This document shows positions 1 through 24,081 of a stretch of DNA of 24,210 bases, in pieces (within the stretch, counting starts at the first letter, position 1; each line of letters starts with the position of its first letter). Source of the DNA: Candidatus Thorarchaeota archaeon. GTDB taxonomy: Archaea; Asgardarchaeota; Thorarchaeia; Thorarchaeales; Thorarchaeaceae. The translations under genes and the position numbers were made by a program. Location of the stretch: assembly GCA_016839605.1 (NCBI GenBank), contig JAEOTX010000124.1:1-24210 (forward strand), in the 5' to 3' direction. The notes under the pieces were generated by a model. That model was given only the letters and a program-made list of their open reading frames with translations, did not search any database and was not told the DNA's origin.

Positions 1-1268
1 ATGTAGCCAGAGTTTAAGAGCTGGCGTGAAACATCACGTGGTGCGATACCACTGATATCCACCCATATCTTTGAGAAGCCCCAACATAGCAGGATCATCA
101 AAAACGCGTATACTGCCACGTGTAGTAATCCATCAGGCGGCGCATCTGGGCCAAAGAGAGCAAACAACCCCTGAGGCGGCGTCACATATCGACTCAGCCC
201 GTATGTTGCTATCATTCTGGCACTCTCTGGATCTTGTTCAAAGACACCGATGAGATTTAGGAATGGGTTGTTTCCCAGCGAATTGAAATTCGTGTAGATT
301 ATCTGTCCAAAGAACAGGATGTTCGCAAATAGCGCCTGAGCCAGAATGACCGGGATGTTCGATGTGTAGAGCAGCTTGATTGGATATCTTGCCTTCATAC
401 CTCTGTATTTGGCATATTGGAGAGGTATCTCCACTCGGACTGTTTCCATCCAAATGACCCCCAATACAATGCCCATCGTGATTATCAGGGTAAATACGCT
501 AGGCGTAAATCCATCTCTGAATAGAAGCCAACCCCATCCAACTGGGTCGCCAGCATCGGTGCCAATATTCATCCAACGCAGCAGATTTCCGATGAGTGCT
601 GCGAAGATGCCCTTTGGCAGGTTTGTACCAATGTTCTCGTCGGGATTGTAGCCGGCTGGTGCGGCAGCCTCTAGGTCGATGAAGTTCAGTGCGTTGAACA
701 TCACTTGGCCTGCAACGTTGGTCATAATGAACAACGATACTCCTGAGCCAAGACCCCATCCCTTCTGAATGAGCTCGTCCATGAGGATCACAACGATACC
801 CGAAATGAACAGCTGCATGAATACAATCACAGCAGCCTCAGGTGTCAACTCACCGTATGCATTGCCCATAATGTAGGCGATTGCTTGGAACGCAGTCATG
901 AACATCGCTAGTACTTTCTGACCACCAGTGAATAGGGCTCTGTCTTCCGGATCACCAAAGTCCACATCAATGATCTTCGACCCTGAGAGCAGCTGCATCA
1001 CTAGTCCTGCAGTGACTATCGGTCCAATTCCTAACTCCATCAGGGTTCCACGTGTGCTTGCGAGGATGACTCGCAGTGCCCATAGATAGTCAGTTCCTAC
1101 TGTTTTGTCCACTCCGTAGAGAGGAATGTGGCTCATTAGTAAGAAAAGTATGAGTATAACAATCGTCCAGACCGCTTTTTCTCTGAACGATACCTCTCTT
1201 TCTGGAGTCTTCACTTCTGGCATTACCCGGACGAAAGGTGATAATGCCCTTAGGAATGTAGACGTCAA
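1..1268 (-). CDS. secY: Preprotein translocase subunit SecY/Sec61alpha (3' end outside window)
   Basis: Not in the ORF track; translated by hand from TTG at 1268 (AGGAG RBS at 1277-1281): [35 protein letters not shown]...HIPLYG...[30 protein letters not shown]...[10 protein letters not shown], which are hallmark SecY/Sec61alpha motifs. Canonical position after uL15. Confidence 0.97.
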   Translation of the reverse strand, partial: [422 protein letters not shown]

Positions 1269-1314
1269 GTTTTCGTCTCCTGCAGGTTTTTCGACCGAAA
1301 GTTAGAGGTCAACA

Positions 1315-1345: not shown

Positions 1346-1795
1346 CTATTCCTTGGGTAAGTCTATGGAACCACCTTTCGCCTCGATCTTCTCTCTTGCT
1401 CTGACTGTGATAGCTTTTACTCCAACTAGGTCGATAGCATGAGTCACTTTCCCAGAGCCAAGTATCTTGTCAATGCCGATGACAGAAAGGTCCACCGTGT
1501 ACTTGCGTCCCTTCTTTGTCGCTCCACCCCGTTCAACAAGCCTCTCAAGAGCCTCGTCAATATCGCCGATATTGAGGGCAACCATATCATCAACAAGCTT
1601 CTGAGGTCTCTTGAAGCCCCATTTTCCAAAGTAGCGTGGGTTTTCCTGCATGACCTTGATGTAATGATGCTTCTTGGAGCCTGCCATACCCTTGCCTCCT
1701 CTCTGACCTGAGGCTCTATGACCCGCACTAAAACCGTAGCCAGCCGCACGGCGGCCTCGCATTTTATGGATCTTCTTGGATTTCCGTTTCTGCAT
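1346..1795 (-). CDS. rpl15: 50S ribosomal protein uL15
   Basis: RGRRAAGYG...GQRGGKGMAGSKKH, YFGKWGF, KILGSG, KIEAKGG motifs; AGGAG RBS; position before secY. Confidence 0.96.
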   Translation of the reverse strand: MQKRKSKKIHKMRGRRAAGYGFSAGHRASGQRGGKGMAGSKKHHYIKVMQENPRYFGKWGFKRPQKLVDDMVALNIGDIDEALERLVERGGATKKGRKYTVDLSVIGIDKILGSGKVTHAIDLVGVKAITVRAREKIEAKGGSIDLPKE

Positions 1796-1812
1796 GACAA
1801 TTCTCTCCTTGA

Positions 1813-2355
1813 CTATGCTTTCTTCAGTCGTACTTCGAGGACTCCATTCCTCATTGATGATTTCGCATCTTCTTTGCGGACTTTCGCAGGGAGGCTAATC
1901 TCTTTATGATACGGCCTCTGCGGATTGTCCACGTCTATAGTCAAGGTCTTGCCCTTGACTCGAACTTTCAGCTCTTCTTTCTCAACTCCAGGTAGCTCAG
2001 CCACGACGATTATTTCACCATCCTCGTCTATGACATCTACCAATGGCTCCAGCTGGGGAGTCATTCCGCTTCCATCTGGGTCTGGTGTGTTTCCAAATCT
2101 CTGAATCATTGGTCTTCCATCAGGACCAGGACGAATCGAGAAACCGAACGTGAATGGATTCGCTCCATCAGGGTTCTCCCGAAGGAATTTCTCAATGGAA
2201 TCGCCGTCGAACATGGTGCCGCCGTCCATATCTTTCATCATGCGGCGCATCATCTCATCGATCTGGTCGAAGACCTCTTCTGGTAGGAATTCACCAAACC
2301 ATTTCCTCAGTTTCTTCCGAGGATCCTCATCGAACGGGTCATCATCCCAACTCAT
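1813..2355 (-). CDS. hsp20: Small heat shock protein (archaeal Hsp20, alpha-crystallin domain)
   Basis: FGFSIRPGPDGRP..FGN archaeal Hsp20 N-region; EPLVDVID...VVAELPGVEKEEL...YHKEISLP...NGVLEVRLKK alpha-crystallin core; GAGGTG RBS. Confidence 0.95.
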   Translation of the reverse strand: MSWDDDPFDEDPRKKLRKWFGEFLPEEVFDQIDEMMRRMMKDMDGGTMFDGDSIEKFLRENPDGANPFTFGFSIRPGPDGRPMIQRFGNTPDPDGSGMTPQLEPLVDVIDEDGEIIVVAELPGVEKEELKVRVKGKTLTIDVDNPQRPYHKEISLPAKVRKEDAKSSMRNGVLEVRLKKA

Positions 2356-2365
2356 CTAGTTCACC

Positions 2366-2848
2366 TCAGATCATCTTACTTGCAAGCTGATTGATTCCAG
2401 TACCGCGATATCCAGTGATTCCACCCATGCCAATTGGCAGGTACTTCTTGCCCTTGAAGCCTTTACGCGGCGGAGTCAGTCTGAATACAGGCTTCAGGCC
2501 TTCTACATCAGTCACACTAGCCTTTCCGTCAGCTATAGCCTTGGCAAGTGACTTGAATGTCTTGAAGCTGGAATTCTTTCTCAGGTATTCTTCACTCAGT
2601 TTCTTGTTTCCAGGCAGACGTCCACGCTTCTTGAGAAGCACCAGGACTGTTTCCTCATCAATCTCACCCCAAGTGATATAATCCTTCGCCTTGGTGATCA
2701 TTCCCTGGAGACTAGGTGTGAGTTTCAGGACTCTAGCCTGGTGTAGTCTGCCGAGCAAGAGCTTGTCCAGATTGTCCTCAATCTGAGGTCTAACCCTGAC
2801 CTGCCCTCTTACTCGTATTGCTAGAATGACTTTCTCTTCTGAACTCAT
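2366..2848 (-). CDS. rpl30: 50S ribosomal protein uL30 (long archaeal form)
   Basis: AIRVRG, KDYITWGE, KPVFRLTPPRKG, GYRG..IN.L motifs; ATGA overlap with uS5. Confidence 0.97.
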   Translation of the reverse strand: MSSEEKVILAIRVRGQVRVRPQIEDNLDKLLLGRLHQARVLKLTPSLQGMITKAKDYITWGEIDEETVLVLLKKRGRLPGNKKLSEEYLRKNSSFKTFKSLAKAIADGKASVTDVEGLKPVFRLTPPRKGFKGKKYLPIGMGGITGYRGTGINQLASKMI

Positions 2849-3528
2849 TCTTCAGCCACTCCTGATGCAGCCCACTCTTGAGGCGGTAGCATTCTGTAGG
2901 TTTCCGTAAGCGCGTCAACAAAGGCCTTCGCGAAGTTTGAGGCTGTTCTGGTTCGTCCCTTTGTGATAGACCAGACATCCTTCAGACCAGCGATTCTGAG
3001 GACCATCTTGCCAACATCTGCGGTCACAAGGCCCGTCCCTTTCGGTGCAGGTCTTAGAGTCACGCTAACAGAGCCTGACTCGCCCTTTGTCTGAAATGGA
3101 ATGCTGTGAGGATCATGACACCTGCACTCCCAAGAGCCACAGCCCCTGCGGAAGATGGTGGCATTCAACTTGGCTCTGGCTTCTGCAGCACGAACTGATG
3201 GAACGAATTCTGAGGCCTTGCCTATCCCAATACCAATTACTCCCTCGCCGTTTCCTACGACTACGGTGATTCTGAAGCTCTTCTGCTGACCACTATCGGA
3301 CTGTCTCTGTACCATTGTGACATCAACAACTTCCTGTCGGAGGTCGGGAATCAACATGTCGACAATCTCTGATTCGCGGATGATGTAGTTATTCTGGAAA
3401 ACCTCCTCAATACTGTTGATATGGCCTTCTTTGACTAGCTTTCCTAAGGCTGTCTTGGGAACCCAGTCATCAAGGGGATTAACATCTTGTCGTCGTGGAG
3501 GTCTTCGGTTTCTTCTTCGCTTACTCAT
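2845..3528 (-). CDS. rps5: 30S ribosomal protein uS5
   Basis: WVPKTALGKLVKEG, VVVGNGEG.IGIG, RRGCGSWEC.C..PHSIP, LRPAPKGTGLV, G.TRT..NFAKA. Confidence 0.98.
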   Translation of the reverse strand: MSKRRRNRRPPRRQDVNPLDDWVPKTALGKLVKEGHINSIEEVFQNNYIIRESEIVDMLIPDLRQEVVDVTMVQRQSDSGQQKSFRITVVVGNGEGVIGIGIGKASEFVPSVRAAEARAKLNATIFRRGCGSWECRCHDPHSIPFQTKGESGSVSVTLRPAPKGTGLVTADVGKMVLRIAGLKDVWSITKGRTRTASNFAKAFVDALTETYRMLPPQEWAASGVAEE

Positions 3529-3541
3529 CGCTTTTCATCTC

Positions 3542-4306
3542 CTACCTCTTTCGCTTCCCCTTCTTGCCCTTGCCTCTTGACACGAGCTTCTTGGGCTTTG
3601 GCTTTCTAGGTACTGCACGAGGTGCCTTTTCAGAAGGTTTCTCTTTCTTCACCTTCTTAGCTGCTGGCTTCTTCGGTGCAGCCTTCTTAGCTGCCGGTTT
3701 TTTCTTCTTCTTCTTTAGATTCGCTTTGGGAATCTCGAGCATAGCCTTCTTTGTCTTGTCGAACTGCTTTGGAATCGTTGTGATGTTCGTTTTCTTCTTA
3801 CCTACAACAGTGAAATGATGGCTATCTTTCTTCTTCTCAGTCACATACTGGTAGGCTTGAACAATGTGTTCTCCAGACGATCTAGATTCGTCTGGAAGTA
3901 CTTCAGGATTGTGAGGCACATCTAACCCTGCATCCACAGCGCCCTTTAGGGCTGCGTAGAGCTTGGAACCTCGAATAGGCGGGTGGAGGCCGACATCCAT
4001 AATGGCTGTTTCAATACCCCGTGCTTTCGCTCTAAGTCCTGCAAGGAATCCAGTCAAGTAAGCCGCAGGCAGATTTGCCACACCAGCGGACCAGCCAAAT
4101 CCTGCAAGCTCGGAAGATATTGCTGACGCTACGGTGTTGTCTCCGACTACCTTGGCATCTATTACCTGTACTATGATGCGACTGTTTGTCTTTCTAACCA
4201 CAAGACGCGACCCTCTGGATTGGAGGAGTCTTTTTCTCCTGTAGTAGTTTGTCTTTCCTTCTCTGCGGCGTCTAAACTTGACCCTGTAAGTTGGACCATG
4301 TGCCAT
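3542..4306 (-). CDS. rpl18: 50S ribosomal protein uL18 with Lys/Ala/Pro-rich C-terminal extension
   Basis: MAHGPTYRVKFRRRREGKTNYYRR, NLPAAYLTG, YAALKGAVDAGL; about 60-aa basic tail. Confidence 0.97.
   Translation of the reverse strand: MAHGPTYRVKFRRRREGKTNYYRRKRLLQSRGSRLVVRKTNSRIIVQVIDAKVVGDNTVASAISSELAGFGWSAGVANLPAAYLTGFLAGLRAKARGIETAIMDVGLHPPIRGSKLYAALKGAVDAGLDVPHNPEVLPDESRSSGEHIVQAYQYVTEKKKDSHHFTVVGKKKTNITTIPKQFDKTKKAMLEIPKANLKKKKKKPAAKKAAPKKPAAKKVKKEKPSEKAPRAVPRKPKPKKLVSRGKGKKGKRKR
3652..3697. repeat. 30-bp-period direct repeat (CCTTCTTAGCTGCyGG x2) encoding PAAKK units in the uL18 tail
   Basis: CCTTCTTAGCTGCTGG at 3652 and CCTTCTTAGCTGCCGG at 3682. Confidence 0.6.
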
Positions 4307-4760: not shown

Positions 4761-5561
4761 TTAGTCCAACTCCAAGTCATCGAGGTCTGTAAAGAGATCC
4801 TCTTCGCCAACACTCTCGGGTGCTCCTGGGTTCAGGACTCTGAGTAGCATGGCGTCCGCTTTCTGGATTATTTCCTGACGCTTCCTGAGCCCCACAGTGG
4901 AGCCAATGCGTATCGCATGAATATCAGGATCCAGTCCTTCAATATCCGCTGGTCGATGAACATACACCTCGATGTATCTAGAGGGATGCATTCCTCTGAT
5001 TGCCTTTGGCTTTCGGTATCCTGCTGATACCATAGCTATGCGGCCCTTACGCTTCTCTCTTGTTGCGCTATCGATTCCTCGTACTTTTCGCCATGAGTTA
5101 CTAACTCGCGTCCATCGATGAGCCTGTTCATGTCTGAACTTCGGCTGTTTCTTCCTCTTCGCCTTAGCGATTCTTAACAGCCGCTGGTCTATGAGTGCAT
5201 CTCGAGGAAGGACTGTTTTTGGTTCCTTCTTCCTCTTCTTTGGCTTAGCCTTCGGTTTTACTTTTTTCGGCTTCTCCTCCGCCTTCTTCTTTACTACCTT
5301 CTTAGGCTTCGCTTCAGGCTTTTTTGGAGCCTTTTTGGGTTTTTCTGCCTTAGGTTTATCTGCTGGCGGAGAAACCATCTTCTGGGCGGCAGCAATAAGC
5401 TTAGTAGCCCCAGCCTCACTGAGTCCATCAACTTTTGCGGCCAGTTTCTCTGGTGCAGACTTGGATAGCTTCGCGACTGTCTTGACTCCAGCTTCTCTTA
5501 GCTTCTCCTCCATCTTTGGACCCAGTCCGGGCACATCTGTCAGTGTAGGTTTCTTTGTCAT
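4761..5561 (-). CDS. rpl32e: 50S ribosomal protein eL32 fused to an N-terminal helix-hairpin-helix domain via a Lys-rich linker
   Basis: C-terminal half PKFRHEQAHRW.R...WRK.RGIDS..R...GYRKPK..RGMHPS is eL32; N-terminal LTDVPGLGPK..EKL.EAG is an HhH pattern. Confidence 0.94.
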   Translation of the reverse strand: MTKKPTLTDVPGLGPKMEEKLREAGVKTVAKLSKSAPEKLAAKVDGLSEAGATKLIAAAQKMVSPPADKPKAEKPKKAPKKPEAKPKKVVKKKAEEKPKKVKPKAKPKKRKKEPKTVLPRDALIDQRLLRIAKAKRKKQPKFRHEQAHRWTRVSNSWRKVRGIDSATREKRKGRIAMVSAGYRKPKAIRGMHPSRYIEVYVHRPADIEGLDPDIHAIRIGSTVGLRKRQEIIQKADAMLLRVLNPGAPESVGEEDLFTDLDDLELD

Positions 5562-10677: not shown

Positions 10678-11141
10678 TATACCACTTCCTCCAATACAAT
10701 CTCAATGTGAGTAGTGTTTTCGAAATACGGAGTGCTCTTTCCAAAAGCCCTCTCGATGTACTTCTTGTAGGTACGGCCTCTGTGTGCTGCAGCATGGGCT
10801 ATCCTGAGTCTGTCAATGTCTAACCCCTTCGCATCAGCATTTGCTTCAGCATTTCTTAGTACCTTCAGGATGTTCTCGGATGCTTTGACCGGATGACCGC
10901 CTGGGCTCCACTTCTTCATGCCTGAGTGGTGTCCACGTTTCTTCTTGTGGCGTCTATAAGGAATCCAGGCTTTCTCCTCAATTACGCTGTCCAATAGATC
11001 AATGGCTTTGTCTAGCATCATGCCTCTGATGGCATTACAGACTTCTCTGCTCTGCTTTGGCGAACATCTTACGTTCCTTCCACTCGCCACTGATGTCCTA
11101 TCCGGATCAATGCCTATGATCGAGTATCCATATGTTGGCAT
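10677..11141 (-). CDS. rpl22: 50S ribosomal protein uL22
   Basis: SPKQSREVC.AIRGM, IPYRRH, G.HP.KA, NAEANA..KGLD, RAFG.STP....TTHIEIVL. Confidence 0.97.
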   Translation of the reverse strand: MPTYGYSIIGIDPDRTSVASGRNVRCSPKQSREVCNAIRGMMLDKAIDLLDSVIEEKAWIPYRRHKKKRGHHSGMKKWSPGGHPVKASENILKVLRNAEANADAKGLDIDRLRIAHAAAHRGRTYKKYIERAFGKSTPYFENTTHIEIVLEEVV

Positions 11142-11169
11142 ATCGACTCACTTCCAGTGCTCTAACTAC

Positions 11170-11200
11170 TCTTAGCACACTTTGTTTTAAGCTGCTAAGA
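11170..11200 (-). promoter_or_regulatory. Putative TATA box (TTAAAA, 11185-11190) bracketed by an 8-bp inverted repeat TCTTAGCA-N15-TGCTAAGA
   Basis: Perfect 8-bp arms at 11170-11177 and 11193-11200 around an AT-rich core about 44 nt upstream of the uL22 start. Confidence 0.5.
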
Positions 11201-11246
11201 TGTTGCACGCTCAACAACCACTCCAGAACTTACCGGCACACGTCTA

Positions 11247-11323
11247 CAGGCTAACTCTGCGCGCAGAACTAGAGGCCTGCACTGAATCCATCTGTTCTGA
11301 AACAGTCGTCATAAGAGCGACTG
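11247..11323 (-). ncRNA. Candidate structured 5' leader or sRNA upstream of the r-protein operon
   Basis: Two predicted hairpins on the minus strand, one needing G-U pairs available only on that strand; TTTAAA at 11347-11352 upstream. Confidence 0.3.
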
Positions 11324-11378
11324 GCGTTCGCCGTGTGAAGTCTGCATTTAAACATTGCGAAACAAGGCTATTCTTGTA

Positions 11379-11777
11379 CTACGGGTTGTCCCCAAACTCG
11401 GCAGTAATACGCCTTAGAACTGGCGTATTTATCGAGCTCTTCACAAGATCGATTCCTTTCTCTGTCATTGTGGCCTTGATATAATGTATTCCTGCCGATC
11501 TGACATATACGAGATTCCTTGCCCTTAATTTCTGGAGGCTTGCAAGGACAATTTGTGTCAGTTCTGATTCGGTCAGGTCAATGCCTTTTCCAGGTGTTTG
11601 AAATGTTTCACACATCTTCAGAACAGTTCGCATACTGCTGAGCTGCCTTCTCTTGCTGTCATAAGGATTGGAGAAGAGCCATAGAAGAACAATGAGATCT
11701 ACAACTTCAAGATCGAGATCTGGATTGTTCTGAAGGGCTTTCTTTGCCACAATCTCTACAACTGGCATTCTCTTCAC
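11379..11777 (-). CDS. Hypothetical protein, probable winged helix-turn-helix
   Basis: SLQKLRARNLVYVRS...ATMTEKGIDLV matches the wHTH recognition-helix/wing pattern (L..L...xLV...LTxKG). Start may be ATG 11768. Confidence 0.7.
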   Translation of the reverse strand: MKRMPVVEIVAKKALQNNPDLDLEVVDLIVLLWLFSNPYDSKRRQLSSMRTVLKMCETFQTPGKGIDLTESELTQIVLASLQKLRARNLVYVRSAGIHYIKATMTEKGIDLVKSSINTPVLRRITAEFGDNP

Positions 11778-11815: not shown

Positions 11816-12529
11816 TCACACCAGTCCTATTATTCCCGTCTTTGGAACGTAGACTACACCCTGCGTCATCAAACGATCGAGCGAAGTCTCTACAGACTCC
11901 TGAGAAACGCCCATTTGCTTCAGGTATTCAATCACATCATCCACTCTTGCTTCTCCGCCTAGCTCTTCGATGCGAAGCACGATGTCTTTTGTCACATCTA
12001 CTATTGGAGCCTTGACTGTTTTCTCAGTTGGACTGTCGACGAGCTTCACTGTCCAAGGCCTAGGGAATATCAAAATACCACTATTTGACAACTTATTGAG
12101 CTGGTCTTCCACCCACTGCCAGTCTAGCTGATACTCTGGGCAAATTTCAGCGATTCTATCCAAAGAGCAATCGCTCTCACTAGCTTCTTTCTCAAGGAGC
12201 TTCAGAAGCCGCTGGGTTTTTCCAGATGGCAGGTCATCCTCAGATTTGTCAACCACATCCTTCGTACTGAGCTTTTCCGAAGGAAGAAGTGCTTTCACTC
12301 TATCTTTACTTGCCTCAACGACCTTATGAAACGCATCGCCACCCCTTGACGCATTATACTCCTTTACAGCGTCAGATGCTTGTTCAGGAGTGTCAAACAA
12401 TGCGCATGCCGCCTTTGTGATATCGATGATGTGCCCACAATAACTACATCGTCGTCTTTTCTGGCCCGCCGGTGCATTGGTGAAGTTCCTACACTTATGA
12501 CATCTGAATACAAGATATGGCTTCAGCAA
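11816..12529 (-). CDS. Zn-ribbon (DUF1922-like) protein with two C-terminal winged-helix repeats
   Basis: YLVFRCHKC...RRRCSYCG Zn ribbon; repeats ending LNKLSNSGILIFPRPWTVKLV and LDRLMTQGVVYVPKTGIIGLV; TTG start with GGAGG RBS (12542-12546). Confidence 0.75.
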   Translation of the reverse strand: MLKPYLVFRCHKCRNFTNAPAGQKRRRCSYCGHIIDITKAACALFDTPEQASDAVKEYNASRGGDAFHKVVEASKDRVKALLPSEKLSTKDVVDKSEDDLPSGKTQRLLKLLEKEASESDCSLDRIAEICPEYQLDWQWVEDQLNKLSNSGILIFPRPWTVKLVDSPTEKTVKAPIVDVTKDIVLRIEELGGEARVDDVIEYLKQMGVSQESVETSLDRLMTQGVVYVPKTGIIGLV

Positions 12530-15165: not shown

Positions 15166-16245
15166 ATGTATGAGCATGCTATATTCAGAGATGCGAAATA
15201 TGCGAAAACTCTCGTTAGCAAGATAGAATCTCTCAACGCTGATAGAGCGACTAGGATTGTTCACGTCTGTGGAACACATGAAGACACAATAACTAGACAC
15301 GGGCTCAGGTCACTTCTTCCAAGTCAAATCTCTCTTGTTGCAGGTCCCGGCTGTCCGGTCTGTGTGTGTGCCGCTGAGGATGTCGACTTCGCAATAGAAC
15401 TGTCGCGTAAGGGCCACATCATCGCAACATATGGTGATATGCTTCGCGTTCCCTCTACTTCATCATCTCTCATCAAAGAACGAGCAGACGGTGCTGATAT
15501 TCGGATTGTATACGGGGTCAATGAAGCTGTAGACATTGCCAAAAGGAATCCGGATCGTGAACTAATCTTTGTAGGGGCAGGTTTTGAAACTACTGCTCCG
15601 ACCATGGCTGTAGAGATTCTGAAGAAGCCTCCAGACAACTTCTCACTTCTTACATCGTTGAAGGTTATTCCTCCTGCAATGGAGATCCTTGTCAATATCG
15701 ATGGCTTTGATGTAGATGGGTTTATCACACCTGGACATGTAAGTGCGGTGATAGGCACCAACTCCTATCAACCTCTCGCTGAGAAACACCGAGTTCCATG
15801 TGTTGCTGCTGGATTTGAGCCCCTCGACGTGCTTGAGTCAATCAGAATGATACTCTTACAGATTAAGGAGGGGCGCGCCGAGTCCGAAAACGAGTATACA
15901 CGAGTTGTGCAGCCTGAAGGAAACATTGCAGCACAAAATGTACTTGAAAAGGTGTTCCGGCTTGGAGATGCTCCATGGAGAGGGCTAGGAACCATCAAGA
16001 GTTCTGGGTATTTTCTTCGGGAGCAGTTCACTGAATATGATGCCCGCTTGAAATTTGATCTACCTCCAATTGAGTCGGTGGACATCCTCCCCGGCTGTAA
16101 ATGTCATGAAGTCATCCTCGGTATCACCGATCCCTCTGATTGTTCTCTATTTGGCAATCGCTGCATCCCAGAAGATCCATATGGTCCATGCATGGTGGGT
16201 CATGAAGGTACATGCAGAATTAGACATGAGCATCAAGAAATCTAG
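15166..16245 (+). CDS. hypD: [NiFe]-hydrogenase maturation protein HypD
   Basis: HVCGTHE, GPGCPVC, GFETTAP, PGHVS, AGFEP.D motifs and the C-terminal Fe-S Cys cluster (CKC..V..G...P.DC.LF...C.P..P.GPCMV..EG.C). Confidence 0.97.
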   Translation: MYEHAIFRDAKYAKTLVSKIESLNADRATRIVHVCGTHEDTITRHGLRSLLPSQISLVAGPGCPVCVCAAEDVDFAIELSRKGHIIATYGDMLRVPSTSSSLIKERADGADIRIVYGVNEAVDIAKRNPDRELIFVGAGFETTAPTMAVEILKKPPDNFSLLTSLKVIPPAMEILVNIDGFDVDGFITPGHVSAVIGTNSYQPLAEKHRVPCVAAGFEPLDVLESIRMILLQIKEGRAESENEYTRVVQPEGNIAAQNVLEKVFRLGDAPWRGLGTIKSSGYFLREQFTEYDARLKFDLPPIESVDILPGCKCHEVILGITDPSDCSLFGNRCIPEDPYGPCMVGHEGTCRIRHEHQEI

Positions 16246-17387: not shown

Positions 17388-19349
17388 CTACTCATGTGCG
17401 GATAGAAACTCTTCTATCATAGCTGCTATCTGTCCATCTGTATAATGTTGTGAGCTAATTGCTCCACTAGCACATGTAGCAGTACAAGTTCCACAGCCTT
17501 TGCATAGAGCTGGATTGACTTCCGCCTTGTCTCTCTGGTTCACGGTGATTGCATTGTAGGGACAGACTGAAACGCAGATGTGGCAGCCCGCGCATAGTTC
17601 TTCATCCACCTTAGAGTAATACGGTTCTACGCTGATCTTTCCTTTCCCCATCATTGACATTGCACCCGCAGCTGCAGCCTTTGCCTGGGCTACTGCATCA
17701 GGGATATCCTTTGGACCTTGAGACATTCCTGCCACGAAAATGCCATCATTGAATGAGTCCACTGGTCTTAGCTTTGGATGAGCCTCAAGGAGAAATCCAT
17801 CTGGTGACTGACTGAGATTGAGAACCTGTGCGATTTTCTTTGCGTCCTTTGGAGGCACCACGCCAGTTGACAATACAACCATGTCTACGTTCTCAAGGTC
17901 AATTGGCTTCCCAAGGAGTGTGTCCTCTCCCCTGACTGTGAGGTTATTCTCCTTCTCTTCGATAATCTCCCCCACTCTGCCTCGGATAAAGCTGACACCT
18001 GCTGCGGCAGTATCTTCCATGAACTCCTCATACCCCTTGCCAAAAGCACGCAAATCAATATAGAAGATATACACATCAGCACCTGTCTTATCGCGGATCA
18101 TACGAGCCTGCTTGATTGCAGTCATACAGCATATTCGAGAGCAGTATCTGTTTGTCCTCTGATCTCTACTTCCCACGCACTGAATGTAGACTATTCTCTT
18201 TGGTTCCTTCAGGTCTGATGGGCGTGTGACGTGTCCTTGGGTAGGTCCCGCAGAATTCAGCATTCGTTCAATCTCAGCTATATTGACCACATTTGGAAAC
18301 GTTCCATATCCATACTCTGCTTTCTCAGTTGCATCAAACACCTCAAAACCAGTGGCTACTATTATTGTGCCCACCTTGAATGTCAATTCCTTCATGTGGT
18401 CATCATAGAAGATAGCTCCTGCTTCGCATGCATCTTTGCATTTACCACAACGAACCGCATCAATACCTAGGCAGTTTTCCATGTCCAAGGTATAAGCTGA
18501 TGGAACCGCCTGAGCAAAGGGGATGTAAATCGCATTTCTGTACCCAAGGTTTGAGTCAAACTCAGATGGAACATCTACTGGACAGACTTCTAGACAATCA
18601 CCACATGCTGTACATTTCTCTAGATCAACATACCTTGGTTTCTGACGGACAGTCACCTCGAAGTTACCAACAAATCCGTCCACCTTCTCCACCTCTGCGA
18701 GAGTTAGGAGTTCGATATTAGGGTGTGATCCTGCCTGTGCCATGCGTGGCGTCAGGATGCATGAGGAGCAATCCAAGGTTGGAAATGTCTTGTCCCATCT
18801 GGCCATATGACCTCCAATCGTGGGTTCTTTCTCCACAAGATACACTTGATAGCCCGCATCTGCTAAGTCAAGTGCGGCTGAGATGCCTGCTATACCTGCC
18901 CCTACTACCATAGTTGACTTTCTGACAGTAACCTCGGTTTCCTCTAGCGGCTCTAGAAGTCGTGCCCTTGCTACAGACATTCTGACAAGATCAATGGCTT
19001 TCTCGGTTGCCGCATCTGAATCATCTGAATGAACCCAGCTAACGTGCTCTCGAATGTTAGCAATCTCAAGAAGGTAGGGATTGAGACCTGCCTCTCGCAT
19101 TACTGTTCGAAAGGTAGGTTCGTGCATTCGCGGCGAACAGGACGCAATCACAATACGATTTAGTCTGTATTCCTTTACTCGGTCCTTCAGGATCTGCTGA
19201 CCTGGTTTTGAACAGACAAACTTGTAGTCTTCAACATGCTCGACGTCAGGGAGGCCTTTCACGCCTTCCAGGAGTCTGTCAAAATCCACAACTCCCTTTA
19301 TGTTGGATCCGCAATGACACAGGAATATCCCGATACGTGCACTAGCCAT
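17388..19349 (-). CDS. hdrA: Heterodisulfide reductase subunit A (stand-alone HdrA)
   Basis: RIGIFLCHCG.NI, ASCSPRMHE.TFR, ANIREH.SWVH, GAGIAG FAD site, KTFPTLDCSSC, inserted ferredoxin, QCVGSRD...CSRICC, HPKLRPV, C-terminal ferredoxin. Start likely ATG 19349; ORF open to 19412. Confidence 0.96.
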   Translation of the reverse strand: MASARIGIFLCHCGSNIKGVVDFDRLLEGVKGLPDVEHVEDYKFVCSKPGQQILKDRVKEYRLNRIVIASCSPRMHEPTFRTVMREAGLNPYLLEIANIREHVSWVHSDDSDAATEKAIDLVRMSVARARLLEPLEETEVTVRKSTMVVGAGIAGISAALDLADAGYQVYLVEKEPTIGGHMARWDKTFPTLDCSSCILTPRMAQAGSHPNIELLTLAEVEKVDGFVGNFEVTVRQKPRYVDLEKCTACGDCLEVCPVDVPSEFDSNLGYRNAIYIPFAQAVPSAYTLDMENCLGIDAVRCGKCKDACEAGAIFYDDHMKELTFKVGTIIVATGFEVFDATEKAEYGYGTFPNVVNIAEIERMLNSAGPTQGHVTRPSDLKEPKRIVYIQCVGSRDQRTNRYCSRICCMTAIKQARMIRDKTGADVYIFYIDLRAFGKGYEEFMEDTAAAGVSFIRGRVGEIIEEKENNLTVRGEDTLLGKPIDLENVDMVVLSTGVVPPKDAKKIAQVLNLSQSPDGFLLEAHPKLRPVDSFNDGIFVAGMSQGPKDIPDAVAQAKAAAAGAMSMMGKGKISVEPYYSKVDEELCAGCHICVSVCPYNAITVNQRDKAEVNPALCKGCGTCTATCASGAISSQHYTDGQIAAMIEEFLSAHE

Positions 19350-19491
19350 ATCTTTTGCCTCTGCTAGAGACCCTTGAATGTCTCCTGTTGAGCATATTGC
19401 GCCCGGCAACATCTGCTATTAAGACATTGTGGAACCGACACCCTCTCAACGCATCCAAAGACAGAAATCGCACCCTTCAGTATCGTCACAT

Positions 19492-21531: not shown

Positions 21532-24081
21532 CTACTTCTTCGACTGCTTCTTCTTTGGCTTGTTTGCTTTCTTCGCTGCGGTCTTTGATTTTGAAGTCGC
21601 CTTCTTCTTGGTGGTCTTCTTTGCAGCAGTCTTGGGTTTGGACTTTGCCTTCGGCTTTCTCTTAGGTTTTGGTGCTGGTTTCGTTTTCTTGTGTTTTTCA
21701 ACAATCTCTGCCATGTCCTGCATGATACCTTGCCATTTCTTCCCCTCACTTGCTGAAACCCAGTCTACCCTAAAGCGGTCATCTGCAATGCCTTTTCTTT
21801 CCATCCATCTACGGATCCTAGGTTCACGCTTTGCCATCCAATGGTTTCCTGTCTGGAAGTGACAATCTGCAGGTAAGTGACAGCCAGAATAGAGTACCGC
21901 TCCAGCTCCGAGTTCGAATGCCTTCTGCGCGAATTGGACATGGTACCGACCAGAACATAATGCACGTATCACTCTTGCATTGGTGGGGTACTGCATCCGG
22001 GAAACGCCAGCAAGATCTGAGCCTCGGTATGAACAGAAGGTACACGCAAAGGCGACAATCTTCTCTGATGGATTCTCCTTGAGTGCCATCTCGATTTGAG
22101 AATGCAATTGCTCATTTGTGAAATTGGGCATGTAGATTGCATCCTGTGGGCAATCACCAGCACATGTACCACATGCCTGACATAGTGCGCCCATCACCGT
22201 GTGTTTTCCAGTGCCATCCACAACAATCGCCCCATAGGGACACCTATTCACACATGTGCCACATCTGGTGCATTTGTCTTGGAGTATTTTGGCACTTAGG
22301 GCTTCAATTGGATATCGTCCCTTCTGAAGGATTATGGATGCCCGTCCTGCAGCCGCACTAGCCTGAATGACTGAATCTCTGATGTCCTTTGGTGATTCCG
22401 CACCTCCACAGATGAAGATGCCAGCTGAGCTGGTGTCAACAGGTCTTAGCTTCGGATGGGACTCAATGTAGAATGAGTCTTCTGTGCAGGATATCGGCAA
22501 TGGGAAGTCACCAGCAGTTCCTTCTGCACCCATTGATAGAATGACCATGTCATAATCTACCATGAGCAGCTTGTTGTGAGTTGTATCCTCCACTGCAACC
22601 CTGAGATTCTTTGTGTCAGGATACTGCTGAATCTCTCCAACTCGCCCCCGAATGAACTTGACACCCTCCTCTCTCGCCTTTCGATATTGGTCCTCAAAGT
22701 ACTTTCCATGCATCCGGAGGTCTTGATAGTATATTGTCACCTCAGTATCTGGATAATGTTCCTTGATGAGCAACGCGCACTTGACTGACTCTGCACAGCA
22801 GTAGTTTGAGCAACCCGTCCTTGTGGAGATGCTGCGTGAACCAACACACTGTGCAATTGCCACCGATTTAGGTTTCGACACATCCGAGGGTCTAACAAGA
22901 TGACCCTCTGTTGGTCCTGCTGCATTGATCAGTCTCTCAAACTCAAGCGTAGTGATGACATTAGGATACCTTCCCCAACCTAATCGCGGGACTTTGTTCG
23001 GATCTGCTGGAGCAAATCCTGTGGCGAGGATGATGACACCAACCTCAAACTCAATGATCTTCTCCCTGTCCGAGGGGATTATTGCCTCTTGTTCACACCT
23101 GTCAATGCATTTTCCACAGCGTATAAGATCCATTCCAAGGCATGCATCGGGATTGATGAAGAAGGATGAAGGGACTGCTTGTGGGAATGGAATACTGATT
23201 GCCTTATTCCAGGTAAGATTCTGATCTGTGCGACTAGGCACATCCACCGGACAGACCTCGACACAGTCATTACATGCTGTACACTTCTCTGGGTCCACGT
23301 ATCGTGGTCTCTGTTTCACTCGTACATTGAAATTGCCAACATAGCCTGAGACCTCATCAACCTCCGCAATGGTTATGAGATTGATATTGGGATGCTTTGC
23401 CACATCTACCATTTTGGGTCCCAAAATGCAAATACTGCAATCGTTCTGTGGGAACACCTTATCGAGGATTGCCATTATGCCACCGATGGTGGGCTCACGC
23501 TCAATCAGGTGAACTTTGAAGCCTGACTCGGCAAGGTCCAAGGCAGCCTGCATCCCTGAAACACCTGCTCCCACAACCATTGCAGCCTGCGTGACTGGAA
23601 CGTCCAGTTCTTGCTGAGCCTCAAGTGTTCTCGCTTTCGCCACAGACATTGCAACTAGTTCTTTGGCTTTCATAGTGGCTTCTTCTGGTTCATGCATATG
23701 TACCCAAGAGACGTGCTCCCGGATATTTGCCATTATGCAGAGGTATGGATTCAAGCCAGCCGCTTTCACCGCCTTTCTGAAGGTGTCCTCATGCATGGTG
23801 GGTGAACATGACGCCACAACTACTCTGTTTAGTTCGTGTTCTTTGATGGCTTGTTGGATCTCATTCTGTCCAGGATCTGCACAAGTGTATCTGTTGGTCT
23901 GAACGAAGACCACCCCCGGTAAGGATTCTGCATACTTGGCTACCTCATCTATGTCTACAACGGCACCAATGTTCTTCCCACATGCACAGGGGAACACTCC
24001 AATCCTTGGTTCTCCGTCTGCAGAAACAACCTCAGCATCTTCAGCAGTTTCGGTCTGGGGTTTCGGATCACTTGTGGTCAT
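21532..24081 (-). CDS. hdrA: HdrA-MvhD fusion protein with Lys-rich C-terminal tail
   Basis: Full HdrA motif set (CACG.NI, SCSP.MHE, GAGVSG, FPQNDCSIC, CVGSR..CSNYCC, HPKLRPV), then MvhD [2Fe-2S] motifs (FAC.FCSY.G.DLAG.SR.QYP, LCSGR, GCH...DCHF..GN, WVSASEG), then a 54-aa basic tail. Confidence 0.95.
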   Translation of the reverse strand: MTTSDPKPQTETAEDAEVVSADGEPRIGVFPCACGKNIGAVVDIDEVAKYAESLPGVVFVQTNRYTCADPGQNEIQQAIKEHELNRVVVASCSPTMHEDTFRKAVKAAGLNPYLCIMANIREHVSWVHMHEPEEATMKAKELVAMSVAKARTLEAQQELDVPVTQAAMVVGAGVSGMQAALDLAESGFKVHLIEREPTIGGIMAILDKVFPQNDCSICILGPKMVDVAKHPNINLITIAEVDEVSGYVGNFNVRVKQRPRYVDPEKCTACNDCVEVCPVDVPSRTDQNLTWNKAISIPFPQAVPSSFFINPDACLGMDLIRCGKCIDRCEQEAIIPSDREKIIEFEVGVIILATGFAPADPNKVPRLGWGRYPNVITTLEFERLINAAGPTEGHLVRPSDVSKPKSVAIAQCVGSRSISTRTGCSNYCCAESVKCALLIKEHYPDTEVTIYYQDLRMHGKYFEDQYRKAREEGVKFIRGRVGEIQQYPDTKNLRVAVEDTTHNKLLMVDYDMVILSMGAEGTAGDFPLPISCTEDSFYIESHPKLRPVDTSSAGIFICGGAESPKDIRDSVIQASAAAGRASIILQKGRYPIEALSAKILQDKCTRCGTCVNRCPYGAIVVDGTGKHTVMGALCQACGTCAGDCPQDAIYMPNFTNEQLHSQIEMALKENPSEKIVAFACTFCSYRGSDLAGVSRMQYPTNARVIRALCSGRYHVQFAQKAFELGAGAVLYSGCHLPADCHFQTGNHWMAKREPRIRRWMERKGIADDRFRVDWVSASEGKKWQGIMQDMAEIVEKHKKTKPAPKPKRKPKAKSKPKTAAKKTTKKKATSKSKTAAKKANKPKKKQSKK

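Follow-up and report, generated by a model that had tools for sequence, protein, structure and literature searches.

The gene order uL30-uL15-secY is among the most stable adjacencies in prokaryotes, and small heat-shock proteins (sHsps) count in textbooks as stress-induced chaperones. Non-ribosomal passengers also occur in archaeal ribosomal operons, such as the gene for the RNase P subunit Rpp29 between uL29 and uS17, and those for SecY, adenylate kinase and a DUF106/YidC-like protein after uL15. In sHsps, dimers are joined into a storage oligomer by a C-terminal I-x-I tail, which fits into the beta4/beta8 groove of the adjacent dimer. For Sulfolobus Hsp20 and Hsp20.1, the dimer was reviewed to be the active form (PMC9133787). 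An Hsp20 (COG0071) gene added to the S10-spc cluster was described for Thorarchaeota bin8, bin27, FW25 and BC and for Odinarchaeota LCB_4, and horizontal transfer was suggested (Tirumalai et al., Archaea 2023, PMC10833476). In this study, we analysed an hsp20 gene located between uL30 and uL15 of a Candidatus Thorarchaeota archaeon (GCA_016839605.1, contig JAEOTX010000124.1, positions 1 to 24,210; this whole stretch of 24,210 nucleotides is called the window). Gene, slot and lineage are the same as in the published report, and CP070658.1 (isolate bin8) is among the loci used here, so the core observation of hsp20 between uL30 and uL15 in Thor and Odin is already published. New here are the sole-copy status in nearly all Thor genomes, the selection data, the loss of the C-terminal tail, and the wider distribution in Hermod, Freyarchaeia, a further Asgard family and Bathyarchaeia; that report differs in covering neither tail loss, selection level and sole-copy status nor the presence in Hermod, Freyarchaeia and Bathyarchaeia. 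The insertion is genuine, is conserved and has been maintained by selection, and it probably represents an Hsp20.1-type sHsp which became fixed in the spc operon as a constitutively co-expressed holdase and stays a dimer or small oligomer.

On the minus strand of the window, uS5, uL30, hsp20, uL15 and secY follow each other in this order. The hsp20 gene (1813..2355, 180 amino acids (aa)) is directly preceded by uL30 (rpl30; 2366..2848, 160 aa; Pfam Ribosomal_L30, 1.6e-9) and directly followed by uL15 (rpl15; 1346..1795, 149 aa; Pfam Ribosomal_L27A, 6.5e-10); secY (3..1268; Pfam SecY, 5e-55, and Plug_translocon) is present with its N-terminal 422 aa and continues beyond the window edge. A gap of 10 nucleotides (nt) separates the uL30 stop codon TGA (2366-2368) from the hsp20 ATG (2353-2355), and one of 17 nt the hsp20 stop codon TAG (1813-1815) from the uL15 ATG (1793-1795). 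The Shine-Dalgarno sequence of hsp20, GAGGTGA (2361..2367), is found 5 nt before the ATG and overlaps the uL30 stop codon by the final two bases of the latter, while AGGAG (1805..1809) within the 17-nt spacer serves uL15, a GGAG-type motif being kept in the Thor loci. Location on the same strand, spacers that leave no room for a promoter or terminator, an own ribosome binding site (RBS) and conservation in relatives mark hsp20 as a probable co-transcribed member of the spc operon. An earlier interpretation of this DNA from the letters alone (the sequence-only reading) had described the same placement, gaps of 10 and 17 nt and a GAGGTG motif as RBS, in agreement with our sequence and Pfam/NCBIfam results; its range of 1795-2366 locates the gene correctly but takes in one base of each flanking gene.

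A synteny survey, which the sequence-only reading had named as a check, was carried out, and the insertion turned out not to be unique to this assembly, since it is found in 61 of 61 distinct Thor loci, in four other Asgard families and in Bathyarchaeia. The order uL30-hsp20-uL15 is present in all 20 loci of the window's family and in all 58 named Thor loci. Among the 61 distinct Thor loci, the upstream gap amounts to 9-22 nt (mode 10) and the gap between hsp20 and uL15 to 11-19 nt in 59 (mode 17), and the sequence TGAGGTG at the uL30 stop codon is conserved. Of the Asgard families sampled, about 28 in number, five have hsp20 in this slot, namely Thor (f1), Odin (f3; closed genome of 1.418 Mb), Hermod (f12), Freyarchaeia (f19; CP147778.1, closed, 3.58 Mb) and the family known from GCA_048939465.1 (f21). 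In about 23 families uL30 stands directly beside uL15, including f2, which belongs to the same order as Thor, and f13. For Asgard hsp20 copies located outside the operon, the upstream gap ranges from 33 to 733 nt, and the upstream gene is divergent in 13 of 18 cases.

An assembly artefact or a recent foreign insertion was also considered, the source being a fragmented metagenome-assembled genome (259 contigs, 80% complete). It is ruled out by the same layout in dozens of independent assemblies, including the closed CP070658.1 and CP147778.1, and the GC content of hsp20 (0.490) and that at third codon positions (GC3; 0.519) are in line with those of its neighbours. In Freyarchaeia, uL15 downstream of hsp20 was called as two pieces (55 and 77 aa) in two read-run assemblies and is intact (145 aa) in CP147778.1, the split being either a strain frameshift or an assembly error.

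The hsp20 product is a genuine archaeal sHsp of the Hsp20.1 type and a truncated member of a known family. It matches PF17886 (ArsA_HSP20; 3.4e-10, 39.8 bits against a threshold of 22.5), PF00011 (HSP20; 6.8e-9, 36.2 bits against a gathering threshold of 20.8) and the NCBIfam equivalog NF041800 'archaeal heat shock protein Hsp20' of the Sulfolobus Hsp20.1 type (147.1 bits at a cut-off of 140, E 3.2e-43), with residues 29-179 aligned to profile positions 1-149 of 162. In an AlphaFold2 model built on a 66-sequence alignment (mean predicted local distance difference test (pLDDT) 77.9), the alpha-crystallin domain (residues 103-180, 1816..2049) is seven-stranded with pLDDT values of 90-97, and the N-terminal part consists of three helices at low confidence and a beta-hairpin (residues 70-88, strands 70-76 and 82-88). 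The best solved match found by Foldseek was the crystallin domain of S. solfataricus Hsp20.1 (4RZK_A; 54% identity, root-mean-square deviation 0.9 A, TM-score 0.86 by target, E 5.9e-9), and a profile search of the PDB (hmmsearch) returned 4RZK with 4.4e-34. Like 4RZK, the domain has no long beta6 swap loop as in classical sHsps. The hairpin belongs to the conserved N-terminal motif GFS..GPDG.P.I..FGN (residues 66-89, 2089..2160), in which G71 is invariant and G77, P78, G80, P82, F87, G88 and N89 are nearly so among the 66 sequences. The Sulfolobus/Saccharolobus Hsp20 proteins (SsHsp20.1, 4RZK; S. acidocaldarius Saci_0922) share with the Thor protein the NF041800 family, the short crystallin domain and the motif GFS..GPDG..FGN. 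They differ from it in that the Thor protein carries an acidic, disordered N-terminal arm and is encoded in the spc operon instead of by a stand-alone gene. The acidic arm had already been noticed in the sequence-only reading; it comprises six Asp/Glu among the first 12 residues and is predicted to be disordered (pLDDT below 50).

For the homodimer, the model reached an ipSAE of 0.54 compared to 0.05 for the best control, with at least 51% of contacts shared between runs and a partner pLDDT of at least 64. Among proteins of solved structure, the same mark was attained by 20 of 30 that were solved as pairs and by 1 of 23 solved as single chains. The predicted interface is formed by family-invariant motifs, i.e. 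the GFS strand (residues 66-75, plus residue 85), AELPGV (120-125) and the NG turn (169-172); the Thor dimer would use the same invariant AELPGV and NG loops as the Sulfolobus/Saccharolobus proteins. Because a closely related protein has been solved as a dimer (4RZK), the good score may be due to mere similarity and is not taken as proof of a dimer.

A distinct property of the Thor protein is its C-terminus. It ends with GVLEVRLKKA, one residue past RLKK, so that profile positions of about 150-162, which correspond to the I/V-x-I/V extension, are absent. Since the match to NF041800 halts at position 149 of 162 and tail-bearing homologues extend to positions 159-162, the lack of an IXI motif claimed in the sequence-only reading is confirmed. 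When the C-termini of all fetched homologues were compared, a tail of about 10-18 residues with an I/V-x-I/V-type ending (IKVE, LKIE or similar) was seen in nearly every copy encoded outside the operon, be it from Asgard archaea, Desulfurococcales, Bathyarchaeia or other groups. The tail is also kept in the in-operon copies of Odinarchaeia, of family f21 and of nearly all Bathyarchaeia. Four homologues of these out-of-operon and tailed in-operon groups (L033, L035, L036 and L175) have no ending of the I/V-x-I/V type; such a tail is typical of NF041800 and not defining, and the Thor protein is treated as a truncated member. Copies stopping directly after beta9 were found only inside the operon, in all Thor and all Hermod copies and in Freyarchaeia. 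Also, the Thor copies have Met, Ile or Leu in place of a near-invariant Tyr located two residues before the NG motif. Similar proteins have been made by engineering, as the deletion variants of StHsp14.0 (3VQL, 3VQM), which were among the structural matches, likewise combine a crystallin domain and an N-terminal region without the I-x-I tail. They differ in being engineered from another archaeal sHsp of the Hsp14 type, whereas the Thor truncation is natural, fixed and conserved family-wide.

Purifying selection on hsp20 is as strong as on the flanking ribosomal genes. The median ratio of nonsynonymous to synonymous substitution rates (dN/dS) was 0.065 for hsp20, 0.069 for uL30 and 0.055 for uL15. 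Codon usage of hsp20, considered as a proxy of expression, lies at the 60th percentile of similarity to ribosomal-protein usage, a value which does not discriminate, as true ribosomal proteins reached the 39th to 99th percentile in a leave-one-out comparison.

The minus-strand cluster starts with uL22 and continues with uS3, Rpp29, uS17, uL14, uL24, eS4, uL5, uS8, uL6, eL32, eL19, uL18, uS5, uL30, hsp20, uL15 and secY. A scan for the TATA-like hexamer TTTAWA gave only two places in the 24-kb window. One of them, TTTAAA (11347..11352, minus strand), lies in the leader of about 237 nt (11141-11379) before uL22, is the sole hexamer of this kind upstream of the cluster, and represents a candidate operon promoter. 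No TTTAWA occurs in the window between uL22 and secY, although Asgard promoters may deviate from this motif, which is a general consensus for archaea. Also, the diversity of synonymous codons in the last 40 codons of uL30 was not lower than elsewhere (61 Thor loci), which argues against a conserved element hidden in the 3' end of uL30. Both results give no sign of a separate promoter; independent expression of hsp20 from a transcription start site within uL30 had been named as the counter-case in the sequence-only reading. Four metatranscriptome runs yielded only short contigs, 90-99% alike, which matched conserved stretches of uL15, uL30 and uS5 from relatives; none of them fell on hsp20 and none across the gene junctions.

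These data bear on the alternative that hsp20 is an independently regulated stress gene, with a heat-inducible promoter in the 3' end of uL30 and an operon position without functional meaning. Archaeal promoters can occur within coding sequence, the Freyarchaeia gaps leave room for a promoter, and sHsp genes are usually stress-induced (PMC9133787). However, we consider this alternative unlikely: neither the hexamer scan nor the synonymous sites of uL30 give a promoter signal, the RBS overlaps the uL30 stop codon as expected of coupled translation, and the inducible role could be taken by an Hsp20-like gene linked to Cdc48.

According to the explanation favoured here, transcription of hsp20 would start at the operon promoter upstream of uL22, and Hsp20 would be translated in step with the ribosomal proteins and SecY. 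Synthesis of the ATP-independent holdase would thereby be constitutive and scale with growth instead of being limited to stress. Since the tail builds the storage oligomer and the Sulfolobus dimer is the active form, the tail-less protein of Thor is predicted, by comparison with other sHsps, to remain a dimer or small oligomer, kept in the client-binding state at all times. Such a permanently client-ready Hsp20 would suit a housekeeping holdase beside the translation and secretion machinery. Several points weigh against this explanation. Co-transcription is deduced from gene spacing and motif scans, and the Freyarchaeia gaps of 144 and 202 nt make separate regulation possible in that group. 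The in-operon copies of Odin, f21 and Bathyarchaeia have kept the tail, so its loss is not needed for life in the operon. The presumed effect of tail loss on oligomerisation is an extrapolation from other sHsps, and N-terminal contacts are able to build sHsp oligomers, too.

In the sequence-only reading, it had been proposed that the chaperone was co-opted for ribosome biogenesis or acts at the interface of ribosome and SecY. Its premise of a co-expressed, growth-coupled and tail-less sHsp is supported by the 61 of 61 loci, the missing promoter signal and the comparison of C-termini; a role specific to the ribosome or to SecY is a possible hypothesis. For ribosome biogenesis, the sHsp would be a holdase dedicated to the ribosomal proteins of the operon, which are very basic and tail-extended, and would be made in fixed proportion to them. 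This would fit the apparent co-expression with ribosomal proteins and a dN/dS equal to that of the neighbours. The operon proteins uL18 and eL32 have long Lys-rich extensions, the Thor-specific acidic arm could bind such basic tails, and tail loss frees the beta4/beta8 groove for another ligand. On the other hand, none of the data connect Hsp20 physically with ribosomal proteins, and the acidic arm is restricted to Thor, the other in-operon copies beginning with basic residues. Moreover, uL30 and uL15 are direct neighbours in about 23 Asgard families, one of them the sister family from the same order, and Hsp20 is encoded there by a stand-alone gene elsewhere, which makes a general need for Hsp20 in ribosome assembly unlikely. 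On balance, we assign a low probability to a dedicated function in ribosome biogenesis.

Two of these ribosomal proteins deserve a short description. The eL32 protein (4761-5561, minus strand; 266 aa) starts with an N-terminal helix-hairpin-helix domain (HHH_5, 6.9e-12), followed by a linker rich in Lys, Pro and Ala and by the L32e domain. The uL18 protein (3542-4306, minus strand; 254 aa) ends in about 60 residues that form a Lys-rich C-terminal tail. In Thor bin8 and bin27, uL18 was annotated as a pseudogene (PMC10833476), and this tail is perhaps the reason for that annotation.

Outside Asgard archaea, the slot is filled in many Bathyarchaeia. In an even sampling of Thermoproteota, hsp20 was found directly upstream of uL15 in 9 of 61 species, the named examples being Bathyarchaeia; in the loci looked at from Nitrososphaeria, Methanomethylicia and Desulfurococcales, hsp20 is located elsewhere. 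The arrangement resembles that of the other operon passengers in that a non-ribosomal gene occupies a fixed slot with minimal spacers, and Rpp29 and SecY are present in the operon of the window as well. Those passengers are near-universal in archaea, though, whereas the hsp20 slot is filled only in five of the about 28 Asgard families and in nine of the 61 evenly sampled Thermoproteota species. Seven Thermoproteota loci, probably from Bathyarchaeia, show a cluster that is interrupted immediately upstream of hsp20, so that hsp20 is the first gene of an hsp20-uL15-secY unit. No match to uL30 or uS5 was obtained upstream of hsp20 in these seven loci; the upstream open reading frame (ORF), where called, is divergent, and the non-coding gap measures about 170-650 nt. 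Two named Bathyarchaeia loci (L250 and L264) follow the same broken-cluster pattern.

Taken together, the broken loci indicate that the linkage of hsp20 to uL15-secY outlasts that to uL30. This is a hint in favour of uL15-secY as operon partner and of a SecY-linked holdase, which would keep precursors or membrane proteins translocation-competent in a SecB-like manner or protect the membrane. Binding to and stabilisation of membranes was reported for the S. acidocaldarius Hsp20 (PMC9133787). Yet the support consists of linkage only, and uL15 intervenes between hsp20 and secY. The linkage may concern uL15 itself or mark a site where the operon tends to break. We regard this role, too, as improbable.

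To our knowledge, archaea possess neither trigger factor nor SecB. A further idea is that of a docking chaperone, in which the empty beta4/beta8 groove of a constitutive dimer would take up an I-x-I-like motif carried by a ribosomal protein or by the SecY complex. The protein would then act as a holdase at the ribosome exit or translocon, in an arrangement that would predate the split of Asgard archaea and Bathyarchaeia. This idea is speculative, and we judge it to be very unlikely.

In nearly all Thor genomes, the operon gene is the only one of the Hsp20.1 type. Hsp20.1-type proteins are present in 269 of 301 Asgard genomes (E<=1e-12) and in 243 of 251 Thermoproteota genomes (E<=1e-20). Of the 75 Thor-family genomes that gave a match, the window's genome included, 73 have exactly one (E<=1e-12), and the operon copy is the sole one in all 18 Hermod genomes with a match. 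In the window's genome, which is 80% complete, the single match to PF00011 is the operon gene. Because the family is nearly universal and the operon copy is the sole one in Thor and Hermod, relocation of the resident hsp20 of the lineage explains the data at least as well as import from outside.

A maximum-likelihood tree restricted to Asgard sequences groups the copies located in the operon of Odin, f21, Hermod and Freyarchaeia (support 85/80) and places the Thor clade in a polytomy. A single clade for all Asgard in-operon copies was not rejected by the approximately unbiased (AU) test (p 0.32). After addition of Thermoproteota the backbone of the tree collapses, and the best tree requires six changes. 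Possible histories are one ancient insertion followed by losses, or the spread of a uL30-hsp20-uL15 segment among co-resident sediment archaea; a protein of 180 residues is too short to settle the question of ancient origin versus repeated insertion or transfer. Apart from the operon copies, the stand-alone Hsp20 proteins of the Asgard families f7 and f13 (three loci) nest within a Thermoproteota clade (support 100/92 and 100/99), which suggests inter-phylum transfer of stand-alone hsp20.

Asgard archaea are the closest prokaryotic relatives of eukaryotes. With a chaperone gene wired into the operon in Asgard archaea and Bathyarchaeia, the output of a holdase would be matched to that of the translation and secretion machinery, and the system allows a test for a chaperone tied to the ribosome or translocon in archaea. 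The natural tail loss in three lineages offers a ready comparison for the relation between sHsp oligomer and activity. Compared to the published arrangement, the added value lies in the breadth, the tail loss and the testable hypotheses.

The Hsp20-like gene linked to Cdc48 is located elsewhere in the window's genome (contig locus 1560-1991, plus strand). This ORF of 143 aa has 29% identity to the operon Hsp20 (E 6e-6) and no Pfam/NCBIfam match, and it sits 13 nt upstream of a gene for a Cdc48/VCP AAA ATPase (2005-4233, plus strand). A Hsp20-like gene together with Cdc48 is a classic archaeal heat-shock pairing, and the ORF may be the stress-inducible sHsp of the lineage. In other Thor genomes there are second matches which are weaker and about 142-153 aa long, and these may represent the same paralogue. 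Beside the pair (400-1287, minus strand), a protein with an N-terminal AN1 zinc finger fused to an M50 (site-2 protease) membrane domain is encoded, which suggests a proteostasis neighbourhood.

Concerning the remaining part of the window, the usual block of uL3-uL4-uL23-uL2-uS19 is not found upstream of uL22, and an ORF with similarity to DUF1922 and winged helix-turn-helix proteins (11816-12529) is located there instead. Two paralogous HdrA-like flavoprotein/ferredoxin proteins (17388-19412 and 21532-24081, both minus strand), the second fused to an MvhD/FlpD domain, are encoded near HypD (15166-16245); they are of the electron-bifurcation type and unrelated to hsp20.

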